This document shows positions 2,867 through 33,021 of a stretch of 64,000 nucleotides of DNA, one piece after another. The stretch lies in IMG/VR virus record IMGVR_UViG_3300021431_004083, positions 187,550 through 251,549 of that record. One strand, given 5' to 3'. A model generated the notes under the pieces. It had not been told where the DNA came from. It worked only from the letters and a program-made list of their open reading frames with translations, and ran no database searches. Origin of the DNA: a virus (Duplodnaviria; Caudoviricetes). Both the position numbers and the translations under genes were made by a program. Position 1 is the first letter of the stretch, and every line of letters begins with the position of its first letter.

Positions 2867-4786
2867 TTAATAATTAAGTTGATTATGAGACTGATTATTA
2901 CCCGCATCAGGTACATCAGGAACCCTACGAGAATCTATATCAGCGGCAGGTTCGTCGAATTGATTCGGCTTCAAACCGAAAGCGTCAAGAAACCGCTGAA
3001 CCTCTTTACTCTCACCGTAAAAATCCCGTTTCAAACCGTGACGAGACATCGTTTTCTTATAATCCTCTCTGAGACCTTTGGACATATGCTCACCGCCATG
3101 ACAAGCCGCCTCGAAATACTTATCGATTTCCGATTTCGGCGTACCCGTAAGACGGAACGCGACGCCCATCGCCACGCTGTTCTTCGCAGGGAAATTAGAG
3201 AAATACGAATACTTAATTGTCTGATTATACTTATCATCCAAGAAAGGTTTATATAAATCTCTTTTACCCTCAGGCATATATTCTAATGCCTTCTCAAGAT
3301 TCAAACAATCCATAACGGATTGGATATGATACGGAATATCCCCGTCGCTGAGATAATCCCGCGCGTCTTGCGAACCAGTATGCGTCTGACTTATCATCTC
3401 AGTATGATAATCACGCAACTTCGGTAAAGGATAATGCTCGAACCCAACAAAAGGCGTCTTGACAACAGCCGACGCATCGACTTCTGTATCCTTAATGTTT
3501 CTGTAATTCCTTATCAAATGCCCCTGATAAGTTAATTGCGTAGACGCCACTAAATTACCATCCGTACCCTTTACATAATTCCGCTGATAATCGTCCGCCA
3601 AATGACGAGACGGCGCCTCACCTGAAGGCATACGGGTAAATACAGTCATATCGCAACCGGAATAACAAAACTTGTCTTCGTCACCGTTCTGATATGCGCC
3701 TGCTTTGAGCATAGCGTTCGTCTTCGGGTCATGCATGATGACACAACGAACAGCCTTATCCTTTGTCCACGGCGCGTCACACTTAACGTCAATAGGACGG
3801 TCAAGTACTTTTTCGAAACCATTCGCTTCAAGAATCTTCATAGCATCGTCATAAGACGTACCGCTATGTATCTCGCGTACAGCATAATCGACCTTTAAAG
3901 GCTTGATGTTCTTTATAATAAGCAACGACGCCTGTTCATAAGGCAAAAGAGCAGAATTCCCGTCAAAACTGGCGCCGGACGTCACTGCGAGGGGAGCACC
4001 GACCAAACCCTCTACAGGATTTAATGCTGTTTGTTGATTAACATAATCAACCATTCTCACATCTCTTTGTTTGATACAAGAAAGGAGCGTCGCCATATCG
4101 TTATCACAATATTCATAGGCTGATACAAGTTGATCTCCGCGAATGTTCATGTCATCGAGTCCGAGAAGGCTCATACGACCGACCATCAAATGAGAACCGA
4201 GACCACCTGTTCTTCGCCACTCAGCCGCCGCTTCTGTATCAATCTCATACGCATGATACAAAATAGAGTCGTAAATCTTCGCGGCGTCCTCGTTACCCTC
4301 CGTCATCTGAGCACGAAACAAAACAGCATTATCAGGATACATAAGCTTTGCGCGCTGTATCGATTGTCTTGTATACGAGTCGGATTCGTATTTCATATCA
4401 GGAGAAGAAAGGAAATCCAACGTCTTGCACAATATCGTATCGATATTATCATCAGGATATCGTGCAGCGGCAGACGTCGCCTTGTCAATCAATTCAGGAC
4501 AATCGCTGTTCAACGCATAAAAAGCCTCACGTGTATCCCAACCGCCGAACTTATCAGGATACTCTTTATCGGCACCACGCGTACCCATAGCGTTGACGAA
4601 ACGATAAAACTTCTGATAAGGAATATCCCCGTGCACGTCGGGACGGTCAAAAATGGAACCAATCGTTTCCATGAAAAACGGAAACCAAGAAGGGTTGCCT
4701 TCGCAAAACGCTTTCGCGGTTCCCGATTGTATTCTGTCTATCACTTCTTGTTGCTTTTTATCTAAACCCGGCATAACACACAACAC
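2867..4786 (-). CDS. hypothetical protein with C-terminal RRVP...Y tail
   Basis: 639-aa ORF. Confidence 0.8.
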   Translation of the reverse strand: MLCVMPGLDKKQQEVIDRIQSGTAKAFCEGNPSWFPFFMETIGSIFDRPDVHGDIPYQKFYRFVNAMGTRGADKEYPDKFGGWDTREAFYALNSDCPELIDKATSAAARYPDDNIDTILCKTLDFLSSPDMKYESDSYTRQSIQRAKLMYPDNAVLFRAQMTEGNEDAAKIYDSILYHAYEIDTEAAAEWRRTGGLGSHLMVGRMSLLGLDDMNIRGDQLVSAYEYCDNDMATLLSCIKQRDVRMVDYVNQQTALNPVEGLVGAPLAVTSGASFDGNSALLPYEQASLLIIKNIKPLKVDYAVREIHSGTSYDDAMKILEANGFEKVLDRPIDVKCDAPWTKDKAVRCVIMHDPKTNAMLKAGAYQNGDEDKFCYSGCDMTVFTRMPSGEAPSRHLADDYQRNYVKGTDGNLVASTQLTYQGHLIRNYRNIKDTEVDASAVVKTPFVGFEHYPLPKLRDYHTEMISQTHTGSQDARDYLSDGDIPYHIQSVMDCLNLEKALEYMPEGKRDLYKPFLDDKYNQTIKYSYFSNFPAKNSVAMGVAFRLTGTPKSEIDKYFEAACHGGEHMSKGLREDYKKTMSRHGLKRDFYGESKEVQRFLDAFGLKPNQFDEPAADIDSRRVPDVPDAGNNQSHNQLNY

Positions 4787-4795
4787 CTTTCTTGA

Positions 4796-5413
4796 TTATA
4801 TCAACGAAAACAAATCGACATCGTCACGGGACAATCCTTCACCTGCATTATCATCTGGCACCTCGATTTTACGGCGAGCAGGACGAGATGATTCAACATA
4901 CCCATGAGACGCCGCAAATTGAGAATACGAATCCTCGTAAGCTTTCAACTCTTCCGCAGATACGTACTCCGCCAAAACATCCTTATCGAACTCATAAAGA
5001 GGGTATGCAACAAAGCCTGATAAACGCATGTCCTCAGTTGACTTCACAATACCTGCCCCCTTCAGTATATCCTCCGCTTCAGGCATATTGTTGACGTCGA
5101 CATACGCATGATATTTCGGCAAAAGCTCATTGTCATCCGCAAGATTGACTGTCAAAGTGCCATAAGGCTCGTCGGGATAATCTCCGCCCTCAGCCATTAA
5201 CAATGATATTGCCATACAAGAAGGATTTGTCATATACGTATCCAATGTCAACTTCATTTTAGCATCCGTATATGTATCGTTCCAATCTAACAGTTTCAAA
5301 AGAAACACCACCCTTTCAACTTGATAAAACAAGTATATCATACATACACAAATTTTACAACAAAAAAAAATTCTCGTTACCGCACAAACGATAACGAGAA
5401 CCAAAATATACAC
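4796..5413 (-). CDS. DUF4313-like protein (true start probably near 5300)
   Basis: EPYGTLTVNL, AYVDVNN and SGFVAYPLYEF motifs. Confidence 0.65.
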   Translation of the reverse strand: MYILVLVIVCAVTRIFFCCKICVCMIYLFYQVERVVFLLKLLDWNDTYTDAKMKLTLDTYMTNPSCMAISLLMAEGGDYPDEPYGTLTVNLADDNELLPKYHAYVDVNNMPEAEDILKGAGIVKSTEDMRLSGFVAYPLYEFDKDVLAEYVSAEELKAYEDSYSQFAASHGYVESSRPARRKIEVPDDNAGEGLSRDDVDLFSLI

Positions 5414-5426
5414 AAATGTAAATATA

Positions 5427-6008
5427 TTATATCACCTTTGACTGCAACTCAGGAGAAAGTTCCCAATCAGAACAAGGATATATATTAGACAGACCTTCAA
5501 AACCTTTAACAAAAAATCCATAATAAGCCTTGCCTATTTCTTCATTAGACCAACCATGACGGAACCATTTAGAGCCGTCATCAAAAATAATCTTAGTCTG
5601 ATGCTCACTTGAATCATGGTGCCTATGCACATAAACATGTTCAAATGACGCAACCCTCACAATTTTGATATGGAAACGATTCTCCTGAATAGCTGTTCTC
5701 ATAGTTTTGGTTTTCTTTATCAAACGCCGGATGCCATAACAAAACACGCCGATAAATAACAAGAAAAACACACCGATAAATAAAAAACTCGAAATTCGTT
5801 CTTTAGAACCGATATCAGCAGATGTTGGACCGAAGAACATACCGAAGAACATAAATAAAAAAATACCAAAAAATATTAAAAAGGAAACGATGAACACACC
5901 CGACACACACCCAATAAAAGGAACTGTGCCTTTCATCAAATTCTCTTGCGTCAACACACGTTTCTCTTTCACAGCAAAAACCCCTTTCGACAAATTATAA
6001 CATACCAA
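5427..6008 (-). CDS. membrane protein
   Basis: two hydrophobic segments. Confidence 0.65.
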   Translation of the reverse strand: MVCYNLSKGVFAVKEKRVLTQENLMKGTVPFIGCVSGVFIVSFLIFFGIFLFMFFGMFFGPTSADIGSKERISSFLFIGVFFLLFIGVFCYGIRRLIKKTKTMRTAIQENRFHIKIVRVASFEHVYVHRHHDSSEHQTKIIFDDGSKWFRHGWSNEEIGKAYYGFFVKGFEGLSNIYPCSDWELSPELQSKVI

Positions 6009-9898: not shown

Positions 9899-10243
9899 TC
9901 AGAAATCAAGACCATCCATATCAAGCTCCTGAGCGCCTGCGGTAAAAGCGTCATTATCAAACGCGCTTTTCCCTGCCATACTGAAACGTGCGACATTCGT
10001 CTCGGTTTGCATATCCGCCCGGTTACGCTGCGACGCCACATCCTGCATCTGCTTACCGCGCTCCCCTTTTGCTTTAGCGGACGCCTCTTTTTCATTCGCG
10101 ATCTGACTCTCATAAGACTCACGCTGGCGACCTTCTCCTAAATTACCGGAAAAGATATCATCAAAAGCGCTTGTGATTGTTGCTCCGACTTCCTCTGATA
10201 ACTTACGTTCACTTTGCCCGTAGGCTTTTCCGTATAAACTCAT
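9899..10243 (-). CDS. hypothetical protein
   Basis: AGGAG RBS; acidic tail ending LDF. Confidence 0.7.
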   Translation of the reverse strand: MSLYGKAYGQSERKLSEEVGATITSAFDDIFSGNLGEGRQRESYESQIANEKEASAKAKGERGKQMQDVASQRNRADMQTETNVARFSMAGKSAFDNDAFTAGAQELDMDGLDF

Positions 10244-10273: not shown

Positions 10274-10855
10274 TCAAGGCTCAGGTTGATAATCAGGCGT
10301 ATCAACATCAGGCGACGGTAAATCAGGAACCATACGAGCAAATGTTTTGTTCAAACCGTCCTCGACCGACTCATAACCCGGCTTCTCCCGATACTTGCCG
10401 ACATCACCATCCTTTGTAATTTCACCCGCAAACCGTTCAACAGCGGCATCGTCAGCCTGATTCTCAGACTGATTGGCCAACTTACGACCATCGCTTACGA
10501 TTTCCTTCTTGAGCGCCTCAAAACAAGCGTCTTTGATACGATTACGACCGGCTCGCGTATCGTGTTTCATAGCATCAAGCTTACCTTCGTTATATGCCTC
10601 AACAGCACGGGAATCAGACGAAAGCTCCTCTTCATAAGCAACACGCCTTTCGTCTCGGACGCCCTCGAACTCACCGACGCCCGCTTCTTGTCGCTTTCGC
10701 TCGTCGCGCAATTCATCGTAGTCCAAATGACTCGCGTCATACTGATGCTGTTCCTCCAATGAATGCTGACCTTTCGTATCGTTACCTGCAGCGCCGGTAA
10801 CACGATTCGCTGTCACCCTTCGCAATACACGCTTCGCTTTACTCATAAACAACAC
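10274..10855 (-). CDS. hypothetical charged protein with RMVP...Y tail
   Basis: ORF with RBS. Confidence 0.7.
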   Translation of the reverse strand: MLFMSKAKRVLRRVTANRVTGAAGNDTKGQHSLEEQHQYDASHLDYDELRDERKRQEAGVGEFEGVRDERRVAYEEELSSDSRAVEAYNEGKLDAMKHDTRAGRNRIKDACFEALKKEIVSDGRKLANQSENQADDAAVERFAGEITKDGDVGKYREKPGYESVEDGLNKTFARMVPDLPSPDVDTPDYQPEP

Positions 10856-10867: not shown

Positions 10868-12547
10868 TTACATTTGATAATCATCATCAAAATCATCAAC
10901 ATCTCTCACATCATCAAAGTCTATTGTGACATACCGACCATGAGGACTATCCGTATGGCTGTCTTCAACATCTATCGACTGATAAGCAGGCTCATTGACC
11001 TCACGAATTGGACGACTCGCTTCATAATCGATTTTGATATCAGGCTTTGCCTGAGACGAATCAAAACAATCATGGTCCTTCGCAAAATCAACAAGCGTCG
11101 CGTAATCGGCAACGAAATTAGGCACATAATTCTCAGGATAGGTGACAAACCCACGCACCTCGCCGACATGAAGCGGTCTCTCCCTGTACTTACAGGAATC
11201 GACATCAACGCCGAATTGCTCTTTGATAGCGTCGCGATTATTTTCCATATAATCATTGAAAAACGCTTTATAATACCGCATCATTTGCGGATTATCAACA
11301 AACATATCGCAAACCCTTGATGACGGCTGTTCATTCGTCAACACGGCCTTTGTCTGTTGGACAGCATCGTATTCGCACAACGACTCAAGCGCGGCATACT
11401 TCGCAACAACGTTGATGTCCTCAGACAAGTAACCATCTTCCGACATTGACCATCCGATATTCTGCGTACGCTTAACAAAAGCGTCATCAATACGAAGGTT
11501 CTTAAACTCCTCAACAAACTGAGAGGGGTCGTCCCACTCTCTCATATTGGCTCGCAAATAAGCCTTCATAACATCAAAATGTGTCGACAAGCCTTGCGGC
11601 GGTCTCGGATGGAATGTTCCCGTAAAATCCTCACCCGTCTCAGGGTCGAAAAACTCGCCATCCCAATGAAGCGTTGTCGAACCGTCAGGATTCGTCACAC
11701 GACGATACTCGCTTTGCTGTGCCTCTCCTGTCGAAACCTCAGTAAACCAAGACATCGTTTCCGGGTCGGCTTCAAACATTTGACCTGCAATAATACGAAC
11801 CGAACGGTCAATATCCTCACGGGAAACGCCGTCGGCAGCTGCGGCTTCATACAAAGCTTCATGCGCTTTCTCCCATGCCTCCTGTAAACCTTCGATATCA
11901 GCACCTTTCTTGCGCATCGCATGATATGTCGTTGTGGAAAACGCAATCGACTGCATAGCCGCGCGTTCAGCGTCAAGAGGTCGCTGAAACTGAGAATAAC
12001 GACGACGTCCACTAAACGAATCAAACGATGACTTATCATCGTTTTGTCTTGCTGCGCGTTGCTTCTTTCTCAAATCAGACACACCATCATGTTTAGCAAA
12101 CAGCTTCGACACAGCGGTATACGACAAAAACCGACCGAGCGACTCGCCAAAGCCGCCTTGACGGCAACCGCGCATCATTAACGGAGCAAAGCACGCTAAA
12201 CGCATTGACCTATCGATATAGTCATGCATAATTAATCGCTGCACATCATAGAAGCTCAAATGCAAATCGGCATCCTTCAGCGTCTTGTCTTTCTCGTATG
12301 ACTTAACAAAATCACTGCAATAAGACTCCCAACGATGAGAATCCCAACCAAATGTATCTGTCGCAAAATGCAAACTATCTATCAACTGATTGTTATTGAT
12401 AGCACGGTCAATATTTCTGCGATGCTGCCAATAAACAGCGGAACGTTCGTCTTCCGTATTCATCGAAACACGACCGCTATTCGCGCTCCGTGAATTATTA
12501 TTACCTGACGGTCCGTCTCTTCTTAATCGTCGCGCCATACAAATCAC
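10868..12547 (-). CDS. hypothetical protein with acidic C-terminus
   Basis: 559-aa ORF with AGGAG RBS. Confidence 0.8.
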   Translation of the reverse strand: MICMARRLRRDGPSGNNNSRSANSGRVSMNTEDERSAVYWQHRRNIDRAINNNQLIDSLHFATDTFGWDSHRWESYCSDFVKSYEKDKTLKDADLHLSFYDVQRLIMHDYIDRSMRLACFAPLMMRGCRQGGFGESLGRFLSYTAVSKLFAKHDGVSDLRKKQRAARQNDDKSSFDSFSGRRRYSQFQRPLDAERAAMQSIAFSTTTYHAMRKKGADIEGLQEAWEKAHEALYEAAAADGVSREDIDRSVRIIAGQMFEADPETMSWFTEVSTGEAQQSEYRRVTNPDGSTTLHWDGEFFDPETGEDFTGTFHPRPPQGLSTHFDVMKAYLRANMREWDDPSQFVEEFKNLRIDDAFVKRTQNIGWSMSEDGYLSEDINVVAKYAALESLCEYDAVQQTKAVLTNEQPSSRVCDMFVDNPQMMRYYKAFFNDYMENNRDAIKEQFGVDVDSCKYRERPLHVGEVRGFVTYPENYVPNFVADYATLVDFAKDHDCFDSSQAKPDIKIDYEASRPIREVNEPAYQSIDVEDSHTDSPHGRYVTIDFDDVRDVDDFDDDYQM

Positions 12548-14069: not shown

Positions 14070-14831
14070 TCACACAATACCGAACTCAACCTCGGAAAAA
14101 CGCTTAGTTACATCAAAGAACGAACGCGGCAGAGGTCGCAAGCGAGCAAGCCCCGCCGCCTCACGCGCTAATCGATCAGCAACAGCCATCCCGGAGTTCT
14201 TTGAACGGGGAACGCCCGCTTTCTCGGCTTGCTTGTTTGTCTTATGACTTGGGATATGCGTAAACCGAACAATAATATCATTCGCATCAAGCATATTAAT
14301 ACCGTCAAGATAACACTTGCGCAATGAATCGCTCGCTTTTCCGTTCCCCCGTGCCCAATCCTGACAAGCCATACAATCATGATGGATAGTGATGTCATGA
14401 ATGTCAAGCTCCTTTACCCTATCAAATAGGGCAAGCATACCGTTCACCTCGGCTTCCAAAGAACCGCGCCTTTTATTATCAGCAAGCTGAGAGCCCGACA
14501 ACACATAACGAGAACCGTTATAATCAATAAAACCGCCGTAACCCGATACACCTGTTCTCTCATTGAAAGAACCGTCAATAAACGCGTAAGCGCGAGAGCT
14601 GTCGTCAATAAAAACATGACGACGTTCCGCGTCAATGATTTCTTCTATTGACAGGCCGAAATAATCAGGCTTGCGTAAACAAAGAGCCGCCAACGAACGA
14701 GACGGACAGCCCTTGACACGAGAAACAGGCGCGTCTTTTATCTTATCATCGAACTCGTCATGAGACATAAAAACACCATGAAAAGTAGGCGTCAAAACCG
14801 CAAAATAAACAGGCGCCTTTGCTTTTGCCAT
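14070..14831 (-). CDS. rnhA: ribonuclease HI with N-terminal hybrid-binding-like domain
   Basis: FIDGSF, EAEVNG, IHHDC, HIPSH and ADRLA catalytic pattern; start refined to MAKAK after GGAGG. Confidence 0.85.
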   Translation of the reverse strand: MAKAKAPVYFAVLTPTFHGVFMSHDEFDDKIKDAPVSRVKGCPSRSLAALCLRKPDYFGLSIEEIIDAERRHVFIDDSSRAYAFIDGSFNERTGVSGYGGFIDYNGSRYVLSGSQLADNKRRGSLEAEVNGMLALFDRVKELDIHDITIHHDCMACQDWARGNGKASDSLRKCYLDGINMLDANDIIVRFTHIPSHKTNKQAEKAGVPRSKNSGMAVADRLAREAAGLARLRPLPRSFFDVTKRFSEVEFGIV

Positions 14832-14850: not shown

Positions 14851-15750
14851 TCAATCGTATTGCCTGTCCTGTTCAACAGGCGACGAGAAATCAAAAGAAG
14901 GCAAAGGTCTATCGGCACGGTCAAAGCCTGACACGCTGTCCTCCGTTTCAACAGAAGGTTCATTGTCGATTTGAACAGACACTTCCGCCGACCGATACGA
15001 TTGCAAAAACGTTTGATAATCCTCACCGAGAGACAAAATCAAATCATCCGACACAGGCAAACCCACCGCCTTATCGGCATGAACGCGAGAAAATAAGGAA
15101 TATTTCTCCAAGAACAATTGAGATTGCCAGTTCATATAATCAAAAAATAATGAACGAGACGAACGCACCGTACCATCTACACGAGCGACATTATCAGGAG
15201 ATGCTTTCGCCCGAAGAAAACCATCGAAAGAAATGCGCATCTCAGCCTCAGTTGAACGATAATGACGAACATCACGATTCACACAGCGGGTGAAAACATC
15301 AATAAAGGCCTGTCGGTTTTGTTCTGACGCAAACGAACCGTTCGTCACGAACTGCGTCTCAAGCGCGTATAATCGATTTTTATCTTCTATCTCCTGTTCG
15401 GACACGACAGGTGCTTTCGGCTTGTGCAGCATATCCCCCAATTCACTGAGATACTCACCAAACCCCGCGAATTTAGCAAACGAAGAAACATCTTCGATAT
15501 CACGGTGCGTTATTGCGGAAACACGGGAACAAAGCGACATAAAAATATCCTCGGAAGAAAAGGAAACAGCCGACATGTCGCAATACTTATCAAAGTCGGT
15601 ATGAATATTGACGCCTTCGATATCACTCAAATCGTCATAAAGCAAAGAAGCATCCGTACGATTATTTCGGTTAAAATATAACGAACGATACAGCTCTCTA
15701 ACGGCGTCGCCGTAATACCTGTCATAATCATCAACAGCCATCAAAATCAC
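14851..15750 (-). CDS. hypothetical protein with RPLP...Y tail
   Basis: 299-aa ORF. Confidence 0.75.
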   Translation of the reverse strand: MILMAVDDYDRYYGDAVRELYRSLYFNRNNRTDASLLYDDLSDIEGVNIHTDFDKYCDMSAVSFSSEDIFMSLCSRVSAITHRDIEDVSSFAKFAGFGEYLSELGDMLHKPKAPVVSEQEIEDKNRLYALETQFVTNGSFASEQNRQAFIDVFTRCVNRDVRHYRSTEAEMRISFDGFLRAKASPDNVARVDGTVRSSRSLFFDYMNWQSQLFLEKYSLFSRVHADKAVGLPVSDDLILSLGEDYQTFLQSYRSAEVSVQIDNEPSVETEDSVSGFDRADRPLPSFDFSSPVEQDRQYD

Positions 15751-16631: not shown

Positions 16632-16657
16632 GAAAAACACCTCTTTTTTTTTAAGCG

Positions 16658-22800: not shown

Positions 22801-22857
22801 GCAACGCTCGCTCGCTTCGTTACGTCTTTGTATCGGGTCGGCTAACAACACACTCAT
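16816..22857 (-). CDS. single-chain two-barrel DNA-dependent RNA polymerase (beta-like and beta-prime-like regions fused)
   Basis: beta-like motifs PTDRDMMRAS, YTMNDSVLFS, GDKASVGGGNK and DFVMSPQTFPGR, then beta-prime-like LPLLPPYLR, KHGLFKQTL, WRDPIL and catalytic AGDFDGD; start refined to ATG at 22857 behind GGAGG. Confidence 0.9.
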   Translation of the reverse strand: MSVLLADPIQRRNEASERCYRNQLRTDRGVVSGRNAVYSGQSTYSPFVRRLLNESVFREAMFSLNETLQAEGERGIPLSYARQLHEEFITTGMSYFSDDTLTAFNMRKTMPIDMDNITASNFANALRAFIKAKTGRDDLDCLSNDGLSKIAGDVRQSFARGFAPLSPYDSRFFMCEWALSSNGSAVYAPVGDKDNGNGGMSLCNASGIPYMDTDMNAFYERIPLYASPDADSMLGEDGRVVTPNSDTAPMVLRSENDLYGLSYLHRYVPQKNPESIENIDRWVKSSGFPMSETAIRSSVAILHHLNDKGVSYTIEPDTSYAAGHVNAVTANKTHIRITSPSNYENNIGRCYNGGLVYYASTDQTVPDYELGQDGRYRLEDGKKIPKVRTGKDGRQWQGEVRAEYMIPIEDRLAVVDYAVGVTPDVANLGEFGSYNTTMYSRQARMNIPSVRQNSFYHTTKQGHRMFRADVKPLPNRCFVRRNNRNQALGIDGLPISYATSNKPAQMSTTNKVHMIVDNKRRYRNISFSSAEEANQFIMEAVDSAKLMFASSVDIDRLLDEADTHGMDYTPVFDEDSVISSVQQSFWALIRQAQEDDGSSYDRELTKERLMSQLSNQFMPERIGYYNSPDDCLINPLLVSRYMTTTNTTGDISHRALSAAFLAANVSRDKFKGEGSSFNAFCEGLVQFDEASQTSLKNLLDSYQDGPQKEIIQSVCDSLTNAITATGCDFDLSKDAFIDDNGIIKYKARRIVVDDLNKSMTGTNISYEPVEGTIGQVFLPDGMGLIETKFNHDDNYLFVPDYEADILPQKPGENKTYEERLCLRGYADVLHDFITARVRSDIVKGVPDFESNTALNRTYRMLRSERFPLNILEKNKRTGMSPELFDDKIYTLSRRFHLPSIYGNSTIRAASLYALSDRKGLANDLNITDPFVRSGFEDISILTDNGYTSKTVTSVNSSMGLNRCLSDGAVLQKRGQNSGHLIIPTDDEELKETRLVRNHMPYAQYSPTDRDMMRASNLLSCRRVAPAVGAFATIGCYTMNDSVLFSKRFAEENGVEGVNAVLTQLGFDDDKLLDSLDDAIEMRSLMSGDKASVGGGNKATAARIVDTDVPERNAMYSGHYMPWKLFKDNPSLDFVMSPQTFPGRFDGYTTREAMDGYAKGNVPDGGVLHIDGKDIPGALCRLDVIINEQTADSKLHVYDAHSGKGRSASAQLTAALIANNAKSIVREFKGSDVASFERLRESLIPLGFDVDEYGNAHLGYSEHEGEERKVVRLPELQYTTNENGERIVDKEAMRNEMFSQLNSYGGFIEVPFQMTLPSGMPLMESYGDDGQPNGNYLLPLLPPYLRSGFDSNGDGPDIYHGYTYAYQRILMNSLEYKALQENQSSVDDFGKMNSLRASIEKEYRNSITNDLEARVFHSKHGLFKQTLARPLPNSATVVWVANPSCKIEEITMGAKMAERLGFVDGDYAMIWRDPILSDGGIRAPKIHIDSDYEDVVGVSPLLMKSLAGDFDGDTIGITKIKGKQALDELIRNFGVVNNALDTHYVAEDGKFDLYYDTGLDIQAVCDAHPELGERLSALRDKFNDDYHLRDENYIEWMATNEKHFEEFNDWYIDAQEADCGINVIQFDSLENNLRSVAACIENGSKGKPDSFDKYCRYLGVTFDAERDEDGHICKDADGKLMVDYSTIKDEGHTLSTWEDRVATQTALSAKNQFTGSYGKQTQHIITATLGAFFDGPSACEGKSACRAGINISEGMTQSALSAKHNVEQARRLIHNVLTSDSPLKALWAGKAIKTSVNADGNPIWIADEARAKDRLSPEEWKKQFTDFATSPFGCDAAVNPEYMDLISRAMTLTDNKGNKYIGSIERVATHRSEILEQAYHPNLKSFASHIAEAGGSLNIYGIDVNAIKRQLSGIEDASKAKETFDKALNDGNVAYVYAPELILWNIAHDAAPEAFNQLHSKDKRVQSRSVEGDYQTQAVAAKATSASVGQRPRIQTPFDLGFHSVSKASDAPNY

Positions 22858-22964
22858 AATAAAAAGCCTCCAATCTAAAATAAAAAAGCAGAAACGACAG
22901 TGCATTTCTGCTTCGAAACCCGTATTCAATCACAAAGCAAAAATCCGTCTCTGTCTCTGCTTGT

Positions 22965-23168: not shown

Positions 23169-24098
23169 TTAATCAAAACTGATTTGTTCATACTCTCGCG
23201 AAACAGAAGAGTCAGCGGTCGGCGCAACATGCTCCAAAACCGCAGGCATCTGTCGCTCATTCTTATAGATATTTGCACGACGAAAAGTAGAATCCTCTGC
23301 GGAATTCAACGTACTGAACCGAATGTTTGACTGGTCAAAAGAGCCCCGAACAACATGAGAACCGTGAAACTGCGAAGAACAAGCGTTCATCCGCTCCAAA
23401 GAAGACTGAGAAACTGACGTATGTCCCTGAACTTCCGCGCTGTATAACTTACTGTTATAAACTGAAGAATTGCCCCTGACAGAAGATTCATGCACAACAC
23501 TATCCACCTTTATATCAGAAGCATCGACAGTACTGCCGTCAACATTGCTTTTAAAAACAGAAGAAGAAGAAATCTTCGAGCCTGACACATGCGCGTTGTC
23601 AAGAACGCTCAACATGATATTGGAATTAGCAGAAGGCGAAAATCCCAAATCAACCGTAGAAGAATCTACAATAGAACCCGAAATGTACGAACCAAATCCA
23701 ACATTACTCTTCGTAACATAAGAACCGGAAACATCACCGCGCACAAAGCTGTCGCCGACATAAGAACGACCGGATATGCGTGAGGTTCCCAAAACAACAG
23801 TATTGGGGGAGCCATAAGACATATCCTCATAAGAAGAATCAAACGACATAAAACCGATACAGTCACCCTTCTTTACGGCAGGGGAAAACAAGCCCCTCTT
23901 ACGCATGAGCTCATTCGCCCAAGGCTGTATATTCACCAAAGCGTACGCGGGAAAAACAGTATAAGAACAACCGTCCCCATCTGTTATATTACGAGGGTCG
24001 TTATAGTCTTTATAATAGTGAGCATGCTCACTCTTGGCAAAATCCTTTGCTGTTTGTCTTTTAGACTTTATTGCTTTGTTTCTTTTTAAAAAACGCAT
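23169..24098 (-). CDS. Ser/Val-rich protein, probable beta-helix
   Basis: VKKGDCIG motif followed by short periodic S/V/G repeats; RQMP...F tail. Confidence 0.65.
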   Translation of the reverse strand: MRFLKRNKAIKSKRQTAKDFAKSEHAHYYKDYNDPRNITDGDGCSYTVFPAYALVNIQPWANELMRKRGLFSPAVKKGDCIGFMSFDSSYEDMSYGSPNTVVLGTSRISGRSYVGDSFVRGDVSGSYVTKSNVGFGSYISGSIVDSSTVDLGFSPSANSNIMLSVLDNAHVSGSKISSSSVFKSNVDGSTVDASDIKVDSVVHESSVRGNSSVYNSKLYSAEVQGHTSVSQSSLERMNACSSQFHGSHVVRGSFDQSNIRFSTLNSAEDSTFRRANIYKNERQMPAVLEHVAPTADSSVSREYEQISFD

Positions 24099-24121: not shown

Positions 24122-24337
24122 TTAACCACCGAACTGATAATCATCCGAAAACTCATATTCCTCCGGCAGGTTGCGCGGTAAACGACGAGCCCGCTGACGA
24201 GGATTCGCTTCGACATCATGACGAATACGAGCGTTTCCGTCATCAAGCGATTTTCTCGAATCAAAACCACGAGATAACGCTTCATCCTCGCTGATATAAC
24301 GACCGACAGACGCGTCATAAAAACGGTTATTCGACAT
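24122..24337 (-). CDS. small protein with RRLP...F tail
   Basis: 71-aa ORF with AGGTGG RBS. Confidence 0.65.
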   Translation of the reverse strand: MSNNRFYDASVGRYISEDEALSRGFDSRKSLDDGNARIRHDVEANPRQRARRLPRNLPEEYEFSDDYQFGG

Positions 24338-24439: not shown

Positions 24440-27400
24440 TCAAAGAATACGCTTTCGTATAAAAATAACAAAAGGCAAACAACACAAAAGCAAAACAAAC
24501 GCAATAATATAATACAATGCAGAACCCATACCGCCTGTATCAGGCATTATCAATTCTACAATATTAGATACACTGACATTTACCTCTGTACGATTACCCG
24601 CTTCATCGAAAAGAACAACTGTCTCCTGTCCGTTTTCGTGAAAACGTTTTGTCAAACGCGTTCCGTCATTCGACAAAACCCAACCGTCAACAGGCTGTAC
24701 GGTTTCATCCGCATCTATAGTGACGTCAACAGGCTCCGTCGTATAAACATCTGAACTGTAAGAAACAACAGCGCTCGGTGCGGTGGTATCTGTGCCTGTC
24801 TTATTCAGACGCAAGCTCGGACGAAGAACCGTAAAAACGTCCTTGCCGAACAACACCTTCAGCTCGTTTGCCGAATTGATTTTCGGTGACAAATCACCAA
24901 ACAAACGATAGATAGACTTAACAGATTCGCCGTCTTTTTTCTCTTCCTTTATACCGATAAATCCAAATAACTCTTCGCCGTTCACCGTGATTTTATCATC
25001 CTCTTCCACATACATGAAATAATAAAACCCGCTTTCAGACGGATAAGCCTTTTTGGCGGTCTGCTCATTGCGATAAACCAAAATGTCACCCGTCTGGAAG
25101 TTATCACTGCGAATATTAGGCGCTCTATCGGTCCTCTCACCCAAACGAGACGGCTGCTCGTATGTTTTCAGCCGTTGAAACAAACTACCGTCTGCCCTCT
25201 CTTTAATGAACAAACCACCATAATAACCGGGAAGAAGCATATCAAAATAACTATTATCCTCATTCAGATAAATAGATGACTTCTTCTTGTCCGCATACCA
25301 AAAATGATGCCGCATACGCTGTTTCACAAGGTCATCGATATCATAATCAGCCAATCCGGGAGAAAAACTAAGACCTTTGTTATAGATATCCTCGACAAAA
25401 TCAGCACCGGACAAACCACCAAACTGTGAATCATGCAGCAACGTTGTCATTCTCGACAAAAGACTCTGTTTCTGTTCATCATTCAAATTATAACCAATAG
25501 TGGTCTCAACAGTAGACGTCGCGATATTATCAACATATCCTTCAGATATGACCTTCTTACCGCAATACTCAACACGATCTGACACTCGAACTGTAAAAGT
25601 CAACGTCAATCGCTCACCGGGAGATAATTCATCATTGACGTCCCAAACCACCTCATTGTCCGAAACAGAAGCGTTTGGCGCTGATTCAAGCGAACTCCAC
25701 GACGGTATCTTTTCCCGTACAACAAAAGGTCGATAAGTAGACTTACCCCGATTTTCAATCAAAAGAGAATATGTCAACGAATCTCCGGGCTGCACCACAC
25801 CTCTGTTATAATTATATCCATCGGCAGCCTTATTAACTGTTTTCTCGATATAAATATCTTCATATCTCAATCTCGACATTGTGGGCGCGGGTATTGTGAT
25901 GTCTGTTAACGTACGATCAGTACATACACAACCGTAAATGCTGTTATCGTCGTCCTCATATTTCGTAGCATAATACTGATACGTGGGATTGCCTGATTCA
26001 TCTCGAAGAACAGGACGCAAAATAGCAAAGCTATTCATATCCCTGCAACTGTGCAAAGCAGGCGGACGTCTTTCCGAGCCGTAACGATAATAGATAAGAT
26101 TGCGTTCCGTAATTGTTCCTTCAACGATACCCGTAACACTGTTATTACGTTCCGCATAACTCAAACCGACAAAAGCGGCTTCACCGTCACGTATCTTTGT
26201 CGTGTTTTTGTCATAATTGCTGCCTGACTCTCGTATAAGCGCGTCGACAACATTGTTGTTTTCATCACGAACCAAATCATAAACCATACAAGTATGCCCG
26301 CGACCCGAGGCTTCCTCACCATGGGACCAACATATAACATCACCGGGACGCAGACCAACATCATTTAACAAATAATTACCATACGCAACAATATCATCCG
26401 AGATATTCCCGTTCTCATGATAAGGCGAGACAGTTTTTTCGTTGCCCTCATTATCGTAAAAAACAAAGGGCTTACTATCCTGTCGTTCCCAATATTCTAC
26501 AACGCCATTAGCGTCAACGGCACTTGGGTCATAATAAGCCTTAGCATACGCAAGCATATTCTGCACGGCAAACGGTATTGATATACCAAGCCCGTTATAA
26601 TATTCCAAGAAAGTAAAGCCCGAACACACGGTATGCATCATATATTGCGAAGTCGCTTGCTCAGGCGCCATATAATTGGTCTTTCGAGCAGTACAATACT
26701 GCAAATCAATTCCCCTGTTATAGTAGGCATCCATTGTTGCCTTTACAGCAGCCTCAAGCAGAACATCGGCACTGATGGTGCTGATATCAACAACAGTCTT
26801 TTCGATATCACCTGCATGAGCTGATATCTTTAAACGGAAATCATGAACACGGTCCAAAAAATCAGTTATTTTATCTTTTGTCGAAGCCTCTGCATTAAAA
26901 CAAAGCGAATAAATACCGACAAAACCGCTTTCCAAGCTTCCTTTACTGTGTTCAGGGTACTCAGTTATTGTTTCCGTTTTACCTGTAGCGCAATCAACCA
27001 ACTCATACTTGATTTCGCTCAAAGGATAGTTAGAATAAACTGTACCCTTAAGACCGTCATGAATATCGTCAATTGTATTAGGCTGCAAAACCTCGATAAA
27101 CGGCAAGTCACGCTCCTTGTTAACAAAGACATTCAATCGAGCAGGAACAAAATCAGTATTCAACAGCTTTTGAAAAGATACCTTCCGATTTACATTAAAA
27201 CATTTCGTCACACCTGAAAGGTCATCAAGTGACGAGATATCTGTATAATCGGGATTAGGTGTAAACGGAACAATGACATCTGTCGAAGAAAGCCTATATT
27301 CGTCGGAAACAGAAGCCTCGGGACCCGCCGTCGAAATAGCGATGTCCGTGCAAATCACATAACTCGCTTCCCCGTCGATATTACCCGACTCATCTCTGAC

Positions 27401-28834
27401 AACATGCGGATAGCCTGAAGCCATCCTCACATGCGAATAATTAGACGTATGTGACGAAATCGTATCAGCAGGCTTTAACTCGGCATACGCCTCAAATAAA
27501 TCTTGAGCGGTATAATACTCATTAGTGCCCGGTTTATAATCAAACGAATCGAAAACAACATCAGATGAACCGCCATTAAGAAACGCTGATGGCGGAACTA
27601 TCTTAGTCGAACGCTTCGTACCGGACAAAATTAGATTGCCAAGCGGAGTAACAAGATGGCTGTCGAACGCTCTCGACACACAATCAGTACCGACCATATC
27701 ACCACAATATCTACCCTGCGCAAAACTCACGGAATAAGAACAATCCTGCCCCGGCAGCCTATTCATATCATCAGGTACATGTAACACATGCGTCAAAGGT
27801 GAATCAGACGTCGTTTCGCAAAGACCGTCAAAAACCCCCAAGGTAACACGGTTTCGTTGCGTATACGGAAGACCGTAATAAGAAACACCCGGTATATATC
27901 GAGCGACAACTCTCTCCGTATCGCCCAACGTACGCACGTCTCGTGCCTCTTTATCAGGTGTCCACTTATAAGTCGCTTCGTTATACATCTCCTGAACGAT
28001 TTCAGTGCGTAATTCTTCCTCCTCAGTCTCGTCGATTGTATCGGTTTCTACATACGACGGTTTCTCATAAACAGAATCTTTATAACCAACGAGCTTGACG
28101 CCGGAAAAATTAAAGTCACCCGTCGTACGCCAATCGCCCGTAAAAGTTACATCTGTATTAATGTACTGAGGATAATTTCCGTAGGGCAAAATATCAATCT
28201 GACTGATAGCGGCGCCATCGTCAATTGAAATCGTATCACTTATCAGATTAAAATTACGCTCATAATATTTGTAATCAGACTGAGATAAAGATGAACGCTC
28301 ATATAGTCCCGTAAATTCCCAATAATACAAACCAAAAGGACCGTGGCGATGTCCGTTAGAATCAGTAACAAAAATCTGCAAGCCATCAGTCTTCATCAAA
28401 GATGTATGAGAGAAACACGAAAAATAATCAATGACAAGCCTCACATCATTGTAACGATTCAAAGGCGTTGAACTGATACCTGATGAGATTGTGATTGTCA
28501 AAGGCTCGTCATCTGTATTAGACATATTACTTTTAAAGTTCTTACGAAAAACAAAAGAACGCTTTAGATTACCGTGATCGTCTGTTTGATTTTTTGCTAC
28601 GAAACAACCACTGCGATCAGCATTGGACGGCCATTTCCTTCGACAAGCAGAAACCTCATCCGTATCATCGACACGTGCTTCATAAAGCACGTCGGTAGAA
28701 TCATCTTCCGCAGCATCGTTGTCAGACGTCGCGGATACCGTCGCAAACGGAAATGATAAAAATATCAAAAGAACAACCAGAACCAAGGATGAAACCGAAA
28801 TAAAAAAATTCTTTGATAATGTACTAAACATCAA
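24440..28834 (-). CDS. large sortase-anchored surface protein with two putative papain-like (NlpC/P60-type) domains and a DUF11-like domain
   Basis: signal peptide; GQDCS...SHVRM and TVCSGF...PGDVI...GHTCMV Cys/His motifs; VQPGDSLTYSL; C-terminal MPDTGG, TM segment and RKR. Confidence 0.8.
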   Translation of the reverse strand: MMFSTLSKNFFISVSSLVLVVLLIFLSFPFATVSATSDNDAAEDDSTDVLYEARVDDTDEVSACRRKWPSNADRSGCFVAKNQTDDHGNLKRSFVFRKNFKSNMSNTDDEPLTITISSGISSTPLNRYNDVRLVIDYFSCFSHTSLMKTDGLQIFVTDSNGHRHGPFGLYYWEFTGLYERSSLSQSDYKYYERNFNLISDTISIDDGAAISQIDILPYGNYPQYINTDVTFTGDWRTTGDFNFSGVKLVGYKDSVYEKPSYVETDTIDETEEEELRTEIVQEMYNEATYKWTPDKEARDVRTLGDTERVVARYIPGVSYYGLPYTQRNRVTLGVFDGLCETTSDSPLTHVLHVPDDMNRLPGQDCSYSVSFAQGRYCGDMVGTDCVSRAFDSHLVTPLGNLILSGTKRSTKIVPPSAFLNGGSSDVVFDSFDYKPGTNEYYTAQDLFEAYAELKPADTISSHTSNYSHVRMASGYPHVVRDESGNIDGEASYVICTDIAISTAGPEASVSDEYRLSSTDVIVPFTPNPDYTDISSLDDLSGVTKCFNVNRKVSFQKLLNTDFVPARLNVFVNKERDLPFIEVLQPNTIDDIHDGLKGTVYSNYPLSEIKYELVDCATGKTETITEYPEHSKGSLESGFVGIYSLCFNAEASTKDKITDFLDRVHDFRLKISAHAGDIEKTVVDISTISADVLLEAAVKATMDAYYNRGIDLQYCTARKTNYMAPEQATSQYMMHTVCSGFTFLEYYNGLGISIPFAVQNMLAYAKAYYDPSAVDANGVVEYWERQDSKPFVFYDNEGNEKTVSPYHENGNISDDIVAYGNYLLNDVGLRPGDVICWSHGEEASGRGHTCMVYDLVRDENNNVVDALIRESGSNYDKNTTKIRDGEAAFVGLSYAERNNSVTGIVEGTITERNLIYYRYGSERRPPALHSCRDMNSFAILRPVLRDESGNPTYQYYATKYEDDDNSIYGCVCTDRTLTDITIPAPTMSRLRYEDIYIEKTVNKAADGYNYNRGVVQPGDSLTYSLLIENRGKSTYRPFVVREKIPSWSSLESAPNASVSDNEVVWDVNDELSPGERLTLTFTVRVSDRVEYCGKKVISEGYVDNIATSTVETTIGYNLNDEQKQSLLSRMTTLLHDSQFGGLSGADFVEDIYNKGLSFSPGLADYDIDDLVKQRMRHHFWYADKKKSSIYLNEDNSYFDMLLPGYYGGLFIKERADGSLFQRLKTYEQPSRLGERTDRAPNIRSDNFQTGDILVYRNEQTAKKAYPSESGFYYFMYVEEDDKITVNGEELFGFIGIKEEKKDGESVKSIYRLFGDLSPKINSANELKVLFGKDVFTVLRPSLRLNKTGTDTTAPSAVVSYSSDVYTTEPVDVTIDADETVQPVDGWVLSNDGTRLTKRFHENGQETVVLFDEAGNRTEVNVSVSNIVELIMPDTGGMGSALYYIIAFVLLLCCLPFVIFIRKRIL

Positions 28835-30657: not shown

Positions 30658-32268
30658 GTGACATATATGTCCGGTATTACCAAAGACGAAGCCATGCGCA
30701 TCGTCACGGAAAAATACTTAGACGGAATTGACTGCCAAAACCCGCCGTCACCCCAAAAGTTGCAATCAGAGCTGCTCGCATGTGTCCAAAACGAATTCAA
30801 AGTACAAAACACAACGAAAGACAAAGGCGACAAATGGCGCATGCCCGATAAATTGTCGACATCGCAGCTTACCGAAGTGTTATTAAAACTATATCACATA
30901 AGAAATATCGCTTGCGCGGGCGAAAACGCCGATACAAGCTATGATCTGCTCGCGTTATACCAAACAGATGGATATAACAAAGGTATTTATGTCACAGACG
31001 AAAAAATCCTGCAGGATATCATGTCATTGTACAGCTATAATATCTCAAAAAAAGAGATGGAAGAGGTGCTGTACAAACTCAAAATCAAAGCTCCGCGCGT
31101 CAAACGCTGCGAGGAGCGTGATTTGATAGCCGTCAACAACGGCATATTTGATTACAGCACAAAAAAACTCACACCGTTCACACCTGATAAAGTATTCATA
31201 TCAAAATCTCATGTTGACTATGTCGACAACCCAAAGAACCCGTCAATTCTCGACGCGTCGGACGGAACGATATGGGACGTCGAATCATGGATGGAATCCT
31301 TATCAGATGACAAAGATATCACCAATCTGTTATGGGAAATCTTAGGTGCTATCATTAGACCTCACGTCAGATGGAACAAAAGCGCGTGGTTCTACTCTAC
31401 CGTCGGCAACAACGGCAAAGGTACGTTATGCGAATTAATGCGAAATATCTGTGGAGAAGGTGCTTACGCTTCGATTCCCATCTCCGATTTCAGCAAGGAC
31501 TTCATGCTTGAACCGTTAACGCGCGCGACGGCGATCATCGTCGATGAAAACAACGTCGGTTCATTTATTGACAAAGCAGCAAATCTCAAAGCGGTCATCA
31601 CGAACGACGTTATCGCGCTGAACCGAAAGTTCAAAGCGCCTATCGCATATCAATTCTTCGGCTTTATGGTACAGTGCCTGAACGAAATGCCACGCATCAA
31701 AGATAAGTCCGATTCATTCTATCGCCGACAAATCTTTGTGCCGTTCGAAAAAAGCTTTACGGGACGAGAGAAAAAGTATATCAAAAACGACTATCTCCAT
31801 CGCCCCGAAGTGCTCGAATACGTATTGTGGAAAGTGCTGAATATGAATTATTACACACTTTCCGAGCCTGCGGCATGTAAGCAAGCGCTCGAAGCATATA
31901 AAGAATACAACGACCCCGTCAGACAATTCGTATCCGAAATACTGCCGGAATGCAAATGGTCGCTGTTACCGTTCGATTTCCTGTATGACTTATACAAAGC
32001 ATGGTTTAAAAACTACGCGCCGTCAGGTACGCTGCAAGGACGCAATACGTTCGTAAACGACATCGTATCGGTCCTCGCCAATATGCCCGGTTATGTTGTC
32101 GACAGAACAAAACAACATACAACGGGACATCGTATGGACGCGGCGGAACCGTTGATAATCAAATACCAACTCAAAGACTGGTACAATCCACATTATCACG
32201 GCAACGACCCCGATAAAATCGCATTAGCGCCGCTCAAACGATGCTACAGAGGAATCGTTGTACAATAA
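30658..32268 (+). CDS. D5/P4-family SF3 replicative helicase (primase-associated type)
   Basis: IAVNNGIFD, Walker A GNNGKGT, Walker B IIVDE, motif C CLNEMP, FYRR. Confidence 0.85.
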   Translation: MTYMSGITKDEAMRIVTEKYLDGIDCQNPPSPQKLQSELLACVQNEFKVQNTTKDKGDKWRMPDKLSTSQLTEVLLKLYHIRNIACAGENADTSYDLLALYQTDGYNKGIYVTDEKILQDIMSLYSYNISKKEMEEVLYKLKIKAPRVKRCEERDLIAVNNGIFDYSTKKLTPFTPDKVFISKSHVDYVDNPKNPSILDASDGTIWDVESWMESLSDDKDITNLLWEILGAIIRPHVRWNKSAWFYSTVGNNGKGTLCELMRNICGEGAYASIPISDFSKDFMLEPLTRATAIIVDENNVGSFIDKAANLKAVITNDVIALNRKFKAPIAYQFFGFMVQCLNEMPRIKDKSDSFYRRQIFVPFEKSFTGREKKYIKNDYLHRPEVLEYVLWKVLNMNYYTLSEPAACKQALEAYKEYNDPVRQFVSEILPECKWSLLPFDFLYDLYKAWFKNYAPSGTLQGRNTFVNDIVSVLANMPGYVVDRTKQHTTGHRMDAAEPLIIKYQLKDWYNPHYHGNDPDKIALAPLKRCYRGIVVQ

Positions 32269-32270
32269 CA

Positions 32271-32303
32271 AAGAAACCGAGGGAAATCCCTCGGTTTTCT
32301 TTT
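32271..32303 (+). terminator. intrinsic terminator, probably bidirectional
   Basis: AAACCGAGGG-AAAT-CCCTCGGTTT plus T-tract between convergent genes. Confidence 0.75.
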
Positions 32304-32358
32304 GTGATAAAAATTAAGCGCCGCCTCCCCTACAGGAGAAGCGGTGCTTCTGCTTATA

Positions 32359-33021
32359 TCAATACGATGGACTTTGCTTTGACTTAGAAGCATCCTGTCC
32401 CTGCAGCTCAGGGGGCGACGGCAAAGGACGCAGCTTCGTTGATACGCTGAAAAAAGAATCAGGAGAAAAACCGCAAGCGTCACGCAACTCGCAAAGAATC
32501 GCGACGGTATCCTTTCGCTGCTCTGCCGTATACGCCGGATTGTTAATAAAGTCCTTATCGAGAAACGAAAAGGGAACGTCATCCTGTGTCGCGCCGTCAT
32601 AAACAATGTCATCGGACAATGCCGATTCTAAGATACGACGAACATTCTCCTCAGGGGAAATACTCGTACTGTAAGCGGGACAACCTTTTACAAAACCAAA
32701 GTAACGATTGTAAATAAAACCACGCATAGCGTCAGGCGACAAAGAACCGTCGGGATGCTCATTGCGTATCTCTGAAGAAATCGAACGGAACAATACATCG
32801 TTTGTAATCGATAACAAATGCAGCTCACGCTGTTCCGCAACAGACAACTCTCCGTCGAAAAATTCTTTATCCTTCAAATCGTTGATTCGATGGTTCAATG
32901 TGTACTTAACATTGTCATCGTCTTTATCATTTGTCGAAAAAACAGAATTAACAATATCACGCATAACAAAATCAATCCTTTCTTTCATACTCAAGCTCTT
33001 TACAATATCATCATAACACAA
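32359..33021 (-). CDS. hypothetical protein with RPLP...Y tail
   Basis: 220-aa ORF. Confidence 0.7.
   Translation of the reverse strand: MCYDDIVKSLSMKERIDFVMRDIVNSVFSTNDKDDDNVKYTLNHRINDLKDKEFFDGELSVAEQRELHLLSITNDVLFRSISSEIRNEHPDGSLSPDAMRGFIYNRYFGFVKGCPAYSTSISPEENVRRILESALSDDIVYDGATQDDVPFSFLDKDFINNPAYTAEQRKDTVAILCELRDACGFSPDSFFSVSTKLRPLPSPPELQGQDASKSKQSPSY

Follow-up and report, generated by a model that had tools for sequence, protein, structure and literature searches.

Why do proteins that are otherwise unrelated, encoded on one element, end in the same way? The element is 251,549 bp long and is filed in IMG/VR as a virus with terminal repeats; the window studied is the stretch G000:187550-251549 (64,000 bp). 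A first-pass annotation of this window had described a shared C-terminal tag on about ten left-arm proteins, among them an RNA polymerase, and had interpreted it as marking cargo for delivery into a recipient cell, by conjugation or in a virion. All ten quoted C-termini are present at the respective ORFs, and we have analysed what they have in common, where they recur and what might read them.

A C-terminal tail on unrelated proteins

Unrelated soluble proteins carry, as a C-terminal tail, a short and portable linear motif that is about 20–28 residues long. It begins with [K/R]-R-x-[L/M/V/I]-P (R-x-Phi-P), often followed by x-hydrophobic-[P/S/F], continues with an acidic linker and carries an aromatic residue within the last six positions. 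Ten strict tails occur in the element, seven in the window (ORFs 2867, 10274, 14070, 14851, 23169, 24122 and 32359) and three outside; looser forms are found in the window at 4796, 10868 and on the 2037-residue polymerase at 16816. The relevant genes are listed here, with tail coordinates in brackets.

2867-4786, minus strand: 639-residue orphan without a Pfam, PHROG or NCBIfam match; strict tag (codons about 2870-2929), R 20 residues from the end
4796-5413, minus strand: DUF4313 protein; loose tag, R-R-K-I-E-V-P variant (about 4799-4876)
9899-10243, minus strand: 114-residue protein; acidic, aromatic-ended C-terminus without R-x-Phi-P
10274-10855, minus strand: 193-residue orphan; strict tag (about 10277-10336)
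10868-12547, minus strand: 559-residue orphan; loose tag, an Arg and then a very acidic tail with aromatics (about 10871-10936)
14070-14831, minus strand: RNase H with hybrid-binding domain and RNase H fold, 253 residues from the ATG at 14831; strict tag added past the last helix (about 14073-14138)
14851-15750, minus strand: 299-residue orphan; strict tag (about 14854-14910)
15762-16766, minus strand: 334-residue orphan encoded immediately behind the polymerase; acidic, Phe-terminated tail without R-x-Phi-P
16816-22929, minus strand: single-chain two-barrel RNA polymerase, 2037 residues, D-F-D-G-D at residue 1532; degenerate tag (about 16819-16890)
23169-24098, minus strand: 309-residue orphan; strict tag (about 23172-23255) with the longest spacing among the strict tags, R 28 residues from the end
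24122-24337, minus strand: 71-residue protein, little beyond the tag; strict tag (about 24125-24187)
30658-32268, plus strand: D5-type primase-helicase, untagged, a negative control inside the region
32359-33021, minus strand: 220-residue orphan adjoining the D5-type primase gene; strict tag (about 32362-32430)
Genome positions 50316, 169009 and 170926, outside the window: three further strict carriers
Genome position 168010, outside the window: RNase_T exonuclease, loose tag

Most tagged proteins had no match in Pfam, PHROGs or NCBIfam, and the ESM Atlas offered no usable look-alike for the 639- and 559-residue proteins. The two recognisable nucleases among the carriers are the RNase H and the loosely tagged exonuclease; most others are orphans.

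The enrichment over a shuffled background, which the first-pass annotation had suggested as a check, is clear. In the whole element, R-x-[LMVI]-P starts 19–23 residues before the C-terminus in nine of 304 ORF products, against 0.78 predicted by the internal rate and 0.67 when the last 40 residues of each product were shuffled (1000 shuffles, maximum 5). This position-locked enrichment is about 12-fold (Poisson p = 1.5e-7), and internal occurrences of the motif stay at the chance rate. An unguided scan of 12,851 three-residue patterns at the C-termini ranked RP.P first (6 versus 0.3 expected, p = 8e-7) and R.LP third; other top-ranked patterns, for example LK.R, were scattered noise with no common context. 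When 23 tails from the element and its relatives were pooled, their net charge was -3.8 compared with -0.06 for all C-termini, and 20 of them had an aromatic among their final six residues (149 of 304 ORF products).

The carriers are indeed unrelated otherwise: their bodies show no significant similarity to each other (best E = 0.012). Arg and Leu codons vary from tail to tail, which rules out a repeat in the DNA; selection acts on the protein sequence of the tail. The shortness and variability of the tail defeat profile searches: a profile HMM trained on 13 tails from other elements gave meaningful E-values in the element for orthologous tails only. A regular expression combined with position was therefore used.

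The tag is concentrated in a co-directional minus-strand block (9/54 versus 1/250 elsewhere, Fisher 8e-7), and none of the 155 plus-strand ORFs carries it. Its reported absence from HU, GNAT, AIM24 and proteins with hydrophobic segments was borne out as well. The D5 primase and the element's SSB are untagged, the SSB also lacks an acidic tip, and the strict motif is absent from the C-terminus of the MobL relaxase.

The element and its relatives

The element is a conjugative megaplasmid of gut Clostridia and not a phage. Besides the relaxase it encodes a wall hydrolase, a topoisomerase, an AAA+ protein, sortases, LPxTG adhesins, and ClpP with two Clp-like AAA+ ATPases. A giant, intron-split coupling protein of the VirD4 family lies at genome 33.6-58.6 kb, is colinear with a protein of Gordonia pGKT2 and is encoded next to a double-AAA+ ATPase. 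The long coupling proteins of pGKT2 and pAYP1020 detected it as tblastn queries; six-frame searches with the Pfam models T4SS-DNA_transf and TraG-D_C missed it because introns interrupt it, and the VirD4 of locus L018 gave no match either. Homologues of its last exon (387 residues) occur on several hundred long contigs. Of the two genes recommended as a check on the transfer hypothesis, VirD4 is thus represented, alongside MobL, while Pfam AAA_10 found no VirB4 in the six frames, where introns may conceal one. With the VirB4-type ATPase undetected, the apparatus does not qualify as a canonical T4SS. The entire transfer region is syntenic, and its large proteins had no Pfam or PDB sequence match.

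In orthologues at 34–83% identity the tail is retained, and in the most diverged pairs it is at least as well conserved as the body (56% tail versus 34% body; 53% versus 39%). R-R-M-P is kept in the L027 orthologue of the 193-residue protein, and L027 also has the R-R-K-I-E-V-P variant of the DUF4313 protein and, on its orthologue of the 114-residue protein, an R-R-Q-I-D variant. The DUF4313 protein and a non-homologous 222-residue protein of L004 have the tail as their sole common part, in L004 in its strict form. RNase H homologues outside the clade mostly lack the tail and finish with the domain, largely as the annotation had supposed; in 55 of 124 homologues the C-terminus lies within 8 residues of where the domain ends. 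In a structure model the RNase H tail is predicted to follow the last helix, with confidence dropping to 56 and then 41. The RNase H tail of P0052 resembles that of the genome-170926 protein.

Among 36 metagenomic loci with a polymerase 25–33% identical to that of the element, eight tagged clusters were found after deduplication (0.6 expected). On three polymerases in these distant loci the tag sits exactly 22 residues before the C-terminus; clear polymerase tags occur only in relatives, the element's own copy being degenerate. All five consecutive genes between polymerase and HU are tagged in L039. Tagged genes, polymerase and HU form a conserved block in the element and its relatives, and in the latter the tagged genes and the polymerase sit directly behind the coupling-protein gene. 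The polymerase gene adjoins the coupling-protein gene in L017, L018, pAYP1020, pGKT2 and L056. The R-x-Phi-P motif was not seen in the Staphylococcus and Gordonia plasmids, L017, L018 and L029, which have polymerase and coupling protein in common with the element.

No relative of the polymerase was found in the viral contig collection or among phage records, and the genome collection contributed nothing beyond a near-identical contig from a Eubacteriales MAG. A polymerase of this kind is absent from the lactococcal pUC11B cluster. No description of the motif or of a plasmid polymerase linked to a coupling protein was found in the literature; the motif is new and tied to a plasmid RNA polymerase module.

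What may read the tail

The tail probably serves as an address label for a single shared partner, possibly the DNA-transfer machine. Added to soluble but mutually unrelated proteins of the polymerase module in a Gram-positive conjugative megaplasmid family, the tail would present one receptor with the proline segment as a first element and the free aromatic C-terminus as a second; reading both together would account for the fixed spacing. Candidate receptors are the giant VirD4-type coupling protein and the adjoining double-AAA+ ATPase. Tagged proteins made in the donor would be passed to the mating channel, enter the recipient alongside the single-stranded DNA and there assist in establishing the plasmid. 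We regard such a co-transfer signal, read by one receptor in the transfer machinery, as plausible and assign it a probability of about 0.35.

The enrichment, the position lock, selection at the protein level and the unrelated bodies speak for co-transfer, as do the conjugation genes and the proximity of polymerase and coupling-protein genes in relatives. Against it, the relaxase, the sole protein certain to cross, lacks the strict motif; this is weak evidence because relaxases elsewhere use internal signals. Further points against are the untagged D5 primase and SSB, the degenerate tail of the element's own polymerase, the undetected VirB4 and the lineages in which polymerase and coupling protein occur but the motif was not seen. 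Clustering with polymerase and HU suits a single intracellular complex equally well.

Conjugative T4SSs transfer many plasmid and host proteins by means of C-terminal or internal signals (PMC8406263, PMC11288057). The Agrobacterium VirB/D4, F, RP4 and pKM101 systems likewise move plasmid proteins, and C-terminal residues of their substrates can be necessary or sufficient (PMC8406263, PMC11288057). Their signals show little conservation and are hydrophobic or carry a positive charge, whereas the tail is acidic, sharply defined and position-locked. Similar in layout is the Legionella Dot/Icm signal, which occupies the last 20–30 residues of many unrelated carriers, is unstructured and acidic, and has hydrophobic or aromatic residues near the C-terminus. 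Its Glu-rich E-block and the hydrophobic residue near the end are read by DotM of the coupling complex. The tail shares this type of feature in its acidic cluster and near-terminal hydrophobic residue, but the Dot/Icm signal has neither a conserved Arg-x-Phi-Pro nor a fixed spacing. Dot/Icm is also a Gram-negative type IVB effector system that targets eukaryotic cells, while here the proposed recipient is bacterial and the cargo consists of plasmid enzymes. We know of no DotM homologue in the megaplasmid family.

The Xanthomonas XVIPCD is also a shared C-terminal module of unrelated proteins and binds VirD4, but it is a folded domain of ~120 residues and not a linear motif of 20–28. The tail of F-plasmid TraD is acidic too, and its terminal aromatic residue and carboxylate are read by the conjugation protein TraM; it sits on the coupling protein instead of on cargo and has no proline motif. 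Comparison with the class I SH3 core (+-x-Phi-P-x-Phi-P) found Pro at +6 in six of the 23 tails and Phe, Ser, Leu, Val or Ile in the others. A sortase/LPxTG-type sorting signal was ruled out; the tails are acidic and the carriers have no hydrophobic segments.

A more elaborate form of co-transfer, which we consider distinctly unlikely, is a plasmid version of the strategy of phage N4, with a ready-made protein kit sent through the mating channel under the address of the tail. The kit would comprise the single-chain two-barrel RNA polymerase, RNase H, the exonuclease and several orphan factors; the AAA+ ATPase beside the coupling protein would unfold the cargo. Before any host enzyme acts, the plasmid's polymerase would transcribe or prime the incoming single strand, perhaps from the 37-nt hairpins in the right arm. 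Among phages, the virion polymerases of the N4-like and crAss-like groups likewise are ready-made enzymes delivered with the DNA of the element, and so are the polyvalent proteins of conjugative elements (PMC5512222). Delivery is by virion in the phages, and polyvalent functions are fused in one giant polypeptide, whereas here separate proteins would have a common address tag.

Alternatively, the tag may recruit accessory factors to one partner within a single cell, without any export; this is possible and only a little less probable than co-transfer. The partner could be a nucleoprotein complex of polymerase and HU, as the conserved block and the five tagged genes of L039 would suggest, and nucleases as the recognisable tagged proteins would fit such a complex. 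It could also be SSB-coated single-stranded DNA, approached by mimicry of the SSB C-terminal region. E. coli SSB has a P-x-x-P linker and an acidic, aromatic tip, and the SSB C-terminal region is likewise a docking handle composed of proline motif, acidic run and aromatic end. There, one tail serves many partners; here, many tails would serve one. However, the tails end in varied residues and not in the [I/L]-P-F, with its terminal P-F, that defines SSB tips, and the element's own SSB has no such tip or tag. The polymerases of relatives are themselves tagged, and therefore the polymerase is unlikely to be the receptor. A docking motif would also need no fixed distance from the C-terminus.

Such a distance is typical of tags engaged by unfoldases, which brings in a bipartite degradation tag. 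An adaptor would bind the proline motif and an AAA+ unfoldase the aromatic end, making the carriers short-lived, in parallel to the reading of the ssrA tag by SspB and ClpX. The element's ClpB/ClpA-like ATPases, together with ClpP, are candidates for this role, and in L018 and L029 the ClpP gene lies between VirD4 and polymerase. We nevertheless think it improbable. Known Clp degrons are short and non-acidic, and the element's tmRNA tag is of the ordinary Ala-rich type, unlike the tails. Its ClpP gene lies on the opposite strand, well away from the tagged genes, and no R-x-Phi-P tags are seen in those lineages where ClpP and the polymerase are neighbours.

That the tail has no function, being a product of compositional chance or a leftover of shared ancestry or 3'-end recombination, is very improbable and already largely refuted. 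The motif is short, was defined after the data had been seen, and in HMM searches was significant only for orthologues; yet the position-locked enrichment, the unguided scan, the recurrence in independent distant loci, conservation above body level in diverged orthologues and the differing codons all contradict this. Packaging into the virion of a jumbo phage or phage-plasmid, the other delivery route proposed at first, has almost no probability left: the virus record with terminal repeats, the injected virion polymerases of N4-like and crAss-like phages and a tape-measure-fused phage polymerase among the closest solved sequences would favour it, but a six-frame search of the element found no HK97 capsid, terminase or portal match, no phage record is similar, and what the element has instead is a relaxase, a coupling protein, sortases and LPxTG adhesins.

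Meaning for the plasmid family

To our knowledge, no protein-translocation or docking signal has been defined for Gram-positive conjugation systems, and those of Gram-negative systems are diffuse. The motif described here is sharp and position-locked. It singles out a set of plasmid proteins and recurs in a large family of uncultured elements, 75–360 kb in size, from gut Clostridia, in which a giant coupling protein is found together with an RNA polymerase encoded by the plasmid. Should it prove to be a transfer signal, it would give a direct and testable handle on the proteins that travel with the DNA, on how a plasmid could import its own transcription machinery and on ways of delivering chosen proteins between Gram-positive cells. 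If it serves docking within the cell, it would define the subunit set of a polymerase-centred complex. On either reading, the tag is the first functional clue to its mostly orphan carriers.

A position-locked C-terminal motif

The first-pass annotation had proposed a shared tag on unrelated proteins, and the C-termini that it quoted are all present. R-x-[LMVI]-P starts 19–23 residues from the C-terminus in nine of the 304 ORF products of the whole element. For that position 0.78 are expected from the internal rate and 0.67 when each last-40 window is shuffled (maximum 5 in 1000), which upholds the proposed enrichment over a shuffled background (Poisson P = 1.5e-7). In one more strict tail the distance from motif to C-terminus is 28 residues. 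Outside the window lie three of the strict carriers and one protein with a loose tag. As the motif was chosen after viewing the data, an unguided ranking of 12 851 three-residue patterns was carried out, comparing the last 30 residues with the remainder of the proteins. RP.P ranked first (6 versus 0.3, P = 8e-7) and R.LP third; the remaining top patterns were scattered and without common context.

Tails are acidic after the motif (mean net charge −3.8 versus −0.06 for C-termini overall), and 20 of 23, pooled from this element and relatives, have an aromatic residue within the last six positions (49% generally). Position +1 is occupied by Pro or Arg; hydrophobic residues, Pro or Ser fill positions +5 to +7, and about half of the tails fit R-x-Phi-P-x-Phi-P. 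With tails removed, the carrier bodies have no significant mutual similarity (best E = 0.012), and the codons for the motif Arg and Leu vary between genes. The tag is neither paralogy nor a DNA repeat.

The strict carriers, all of them without hydrophobic segments, cluster in a minus-strand block at 163–221 kb: nine of the ten are encoded by its 54 ORFs, against one from the 250 ORFs elsewhere and none from the plus strand with its 155 ORFs (Fisher, 8e-7). Recognisable carriers are RNase H and, with loose tags, an RNase_T exonuclease and a DUF4313 protein; the others are orphans. HU, GNAT and AIM24 are untagged, as reported previously, and so are the D5 primase, the relaxase, the SSB of the element and all right-arm proteins. 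Other features of this part are:

Window 24440–28834: 1464-aa adhesin with an LPxTG-like sorting signal.
Window 34208–37966 (+): beginning of the right arm, with NADAR and RtcB homologues (Pfam matches on the orthologues in the close relative L024), candidate counter-defence or repair genes.
Window 45998–64000 (+): 37-nt intergenic hairpin repeats, on the strand and arm opposite the tagged block; they could conceivably act as promoters on single-stranded DNA for the plasmid polymerase.
Genome 89119–89622 (+; locus L065:1414–1917): SSB gene, antisense to a longer spurious ORF; the protein has an Ala/Pro-rich C-terminal stretch instead of the usual acidic Pro-Phe tip.

The adhesin is missing from L024, where the 71-aa tagged gene directly follows the DUF3592 gene; the difference is an insertion or deletion within the tagged block.

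Conservation and mobility of the tail

In a 282-kb relative (homologous protein P0002; loci L003–L006), with a polymerase 61% identical, the tail is kept in orthologues of the exonuclease, the 102-aa, 71-aa, 309-aa and 299-aa proteins and RNase H. The last 28 columns of the most diverged pairs exceed the bodies in identity (56% versus 34%; 53% versus 39%). The relative's polymerase has a clear C-terminal tag; that of this element stops earlier and carries only a degenerate version. Since unrelated bodies share tails, the tail behaves as a movable module: a 222-aa protein of the relative and the DUF4313 protein of the window share the tail alone (27 residues, 52% identity), and the distant RNase H P0052 has the tail subtype of an unrelated protein at genome 170926.

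An exhaustive search found 343 RNase H relatives. The domain end is recognisable in 124, of which 55 end at most eight residues beyond it and only five, all among the best-scoring matches, have an R-x-Phi-P tail; the lack of the tail in RNase H homologues outside the clade, which the first-pass annotation had proposed to check, is thus largely borne out. Three tail-bearing matches were traced to contigs. Two come from elements that share this gene order, including HU and these orphan proteins and, in some cases, the polymerase; the third, P0052 (locus L028), comes from a conjugative-type element, where its neighbours are LPxTG adhesin and topoisomerase genes. In the AlphaFold model of RNase H (mean pLDDT 88.7), the final helix of the fold comprises residues 209–226; in the tail beyond it confidence drops to 56, then 41.

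The 2037-aa protein contains D-F-D-G-D at residue 1532, its PDB sequence matches are weak, to phage beta-prime-like chains, and its homologues carry Rpb1 and Rpb2 Pfam domains. It is a single-chain two-barrel polymerase, in agreement with its initial assignment as an RNAP. The polymerase alignment retrieved 36 metagenomic loci (polymerases 25–33% identical, contigs up to 256 kb), whose 680 ORFs were clustered into 301 groups. Eight cluster representatives have R-x-Phi-P 17–34 residues from the end and a net-acidic tail (shuffling expectation 0.6, maximum 5 in 500). All five genes between polymerase and HU are tagged in locus L039, and in L030, L038 and L056 the motif lies exactly 22 residues from the polymerase C-terminus. 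The order in several distant loci is coupling protein, polymerase, small acidic-tailed proteins, HU. Adjacent polymerase and coupling-protein genes also occur in L017, L018, Staphylococcus pAYP1020 and Gordonia pGKT2, lineages in which R-x-Phi-P tags were not seen. In pGKT2 (L021:9205–16409), the polymerase homologue has a C-terminal ...E-(G)-L-G-A tail resembling that of a 778-aa protein encoded two genes downstream; these two examples may represent a different lineage-specific tag. One lineage (L018:2501–9879; L029:7739–15343) has a ClpP gene between the VirD4 and polymerase genes; ClpP of this element is encoded at genome 137044–137670.

A conjugative element and its transfer region

The 251 549-bp record, of which the window is the final 64 kb, is filed as a virus and has terminal repeats. 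Six-frame searches of the element gave no match to HK97 capsid, terminase or portal, which speaks against the suggested virion packaging, and nothing similar was found among phage records. The element encodes a MobL relaxase, an M23/lysozyme wall hydrolase, a type IA topoisomerase, a ClpB-like double-AAA+ ATPase with a homing-endonuclease insert, sortases and LPxTG adhesins. Its host is a member of the Eubacteriales, and one coupling-protein homologue bears the label Ruminococcus bromii. The transfer genes are:

Genome 33594–58623 (about 25 kb, outside the window; loci L008, L009): giant VirD4-family coupling-protein gene, split into nine or more pieces that are colinear with the 1412-aa pGKT2 coupling protein; genes in between include those for an RNase H paralogue whose tail is degenerate (49482) and a tagged 230-aa protein (50316).
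Genome 58776–81150: transfer region conserved across Firmicutes and Actinobacteria plasmids (pGKT2, L023 and L021; pAYP1020, L020), comprising MobL, double-AAA+ ATPase, large membrane protein, giant coupling protein, wall hydrolase and a 1300-aa protein.
Genome 61020–64553: ClpB-like ATPase with a LAGLIDADG/homing-endonuclease insert; the called ORF shows no Walker A motif, suggesting that an intein or intron interrupts it further.

The entire transfer region is syntenic with pGKT2. Of the flanking genes named in the first-pass annotation, the VirD4-type coupling protein is present, and neither a VirB4-type ATPase nor a capsid gene was detected in the element. Given its relaxase, coupling-protein and wall-hydrolase genes, the lack of phage structural matches and the undetected VirB4, we read the element, from its gene content, as a conjugative megaplasmid whose transfer apparatus is non-canonical. 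VirB4 is likewise undetectable in the conserved regions of pGKT2 and pAYP1020, and PLSDB types these plasmids only as mobilizable or non-mobilizable. The region may encode a conjugation apparatus of a type not yet recognised, in which the polymerase is a frequent component.

Possible roles of the tail

The tail is a portable C-terminal motif, under selection and position-locked, that marks soluble proteins from a single module of a family of conjugative elements. The constant spacing of the proline segment and the free aromatic end suggests that one receptor reads both. We rank first, with a probability of about 0.35, that the tail is a transfer signal. This candidate is favoured by the tie between module and coupling protein across phyla, by the carriage of C-terminally signalled proteins by conjugation machines (PMC8406263, PMC11288057), by the acidic-plus-hydrophobic character that the tail has in common with Dot/Icm signals, and by a conserved AAA+ ATPase, encoded next to the coupling protein, that could unfold cargo. 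It is weakened by the untagged relaxase, primase and SSB, by the undetected VirB4 and by sister lineages without the motif. Docking of the carriers to an intracellular hub is somewhat less probable, and a bipartite degron is improbable. Chance similarity and a virion-packaging signal are nearly excluded. The novelty lies in the motif, in how tightly it is spaced and in its association with a plasmid RNA polymerase module.
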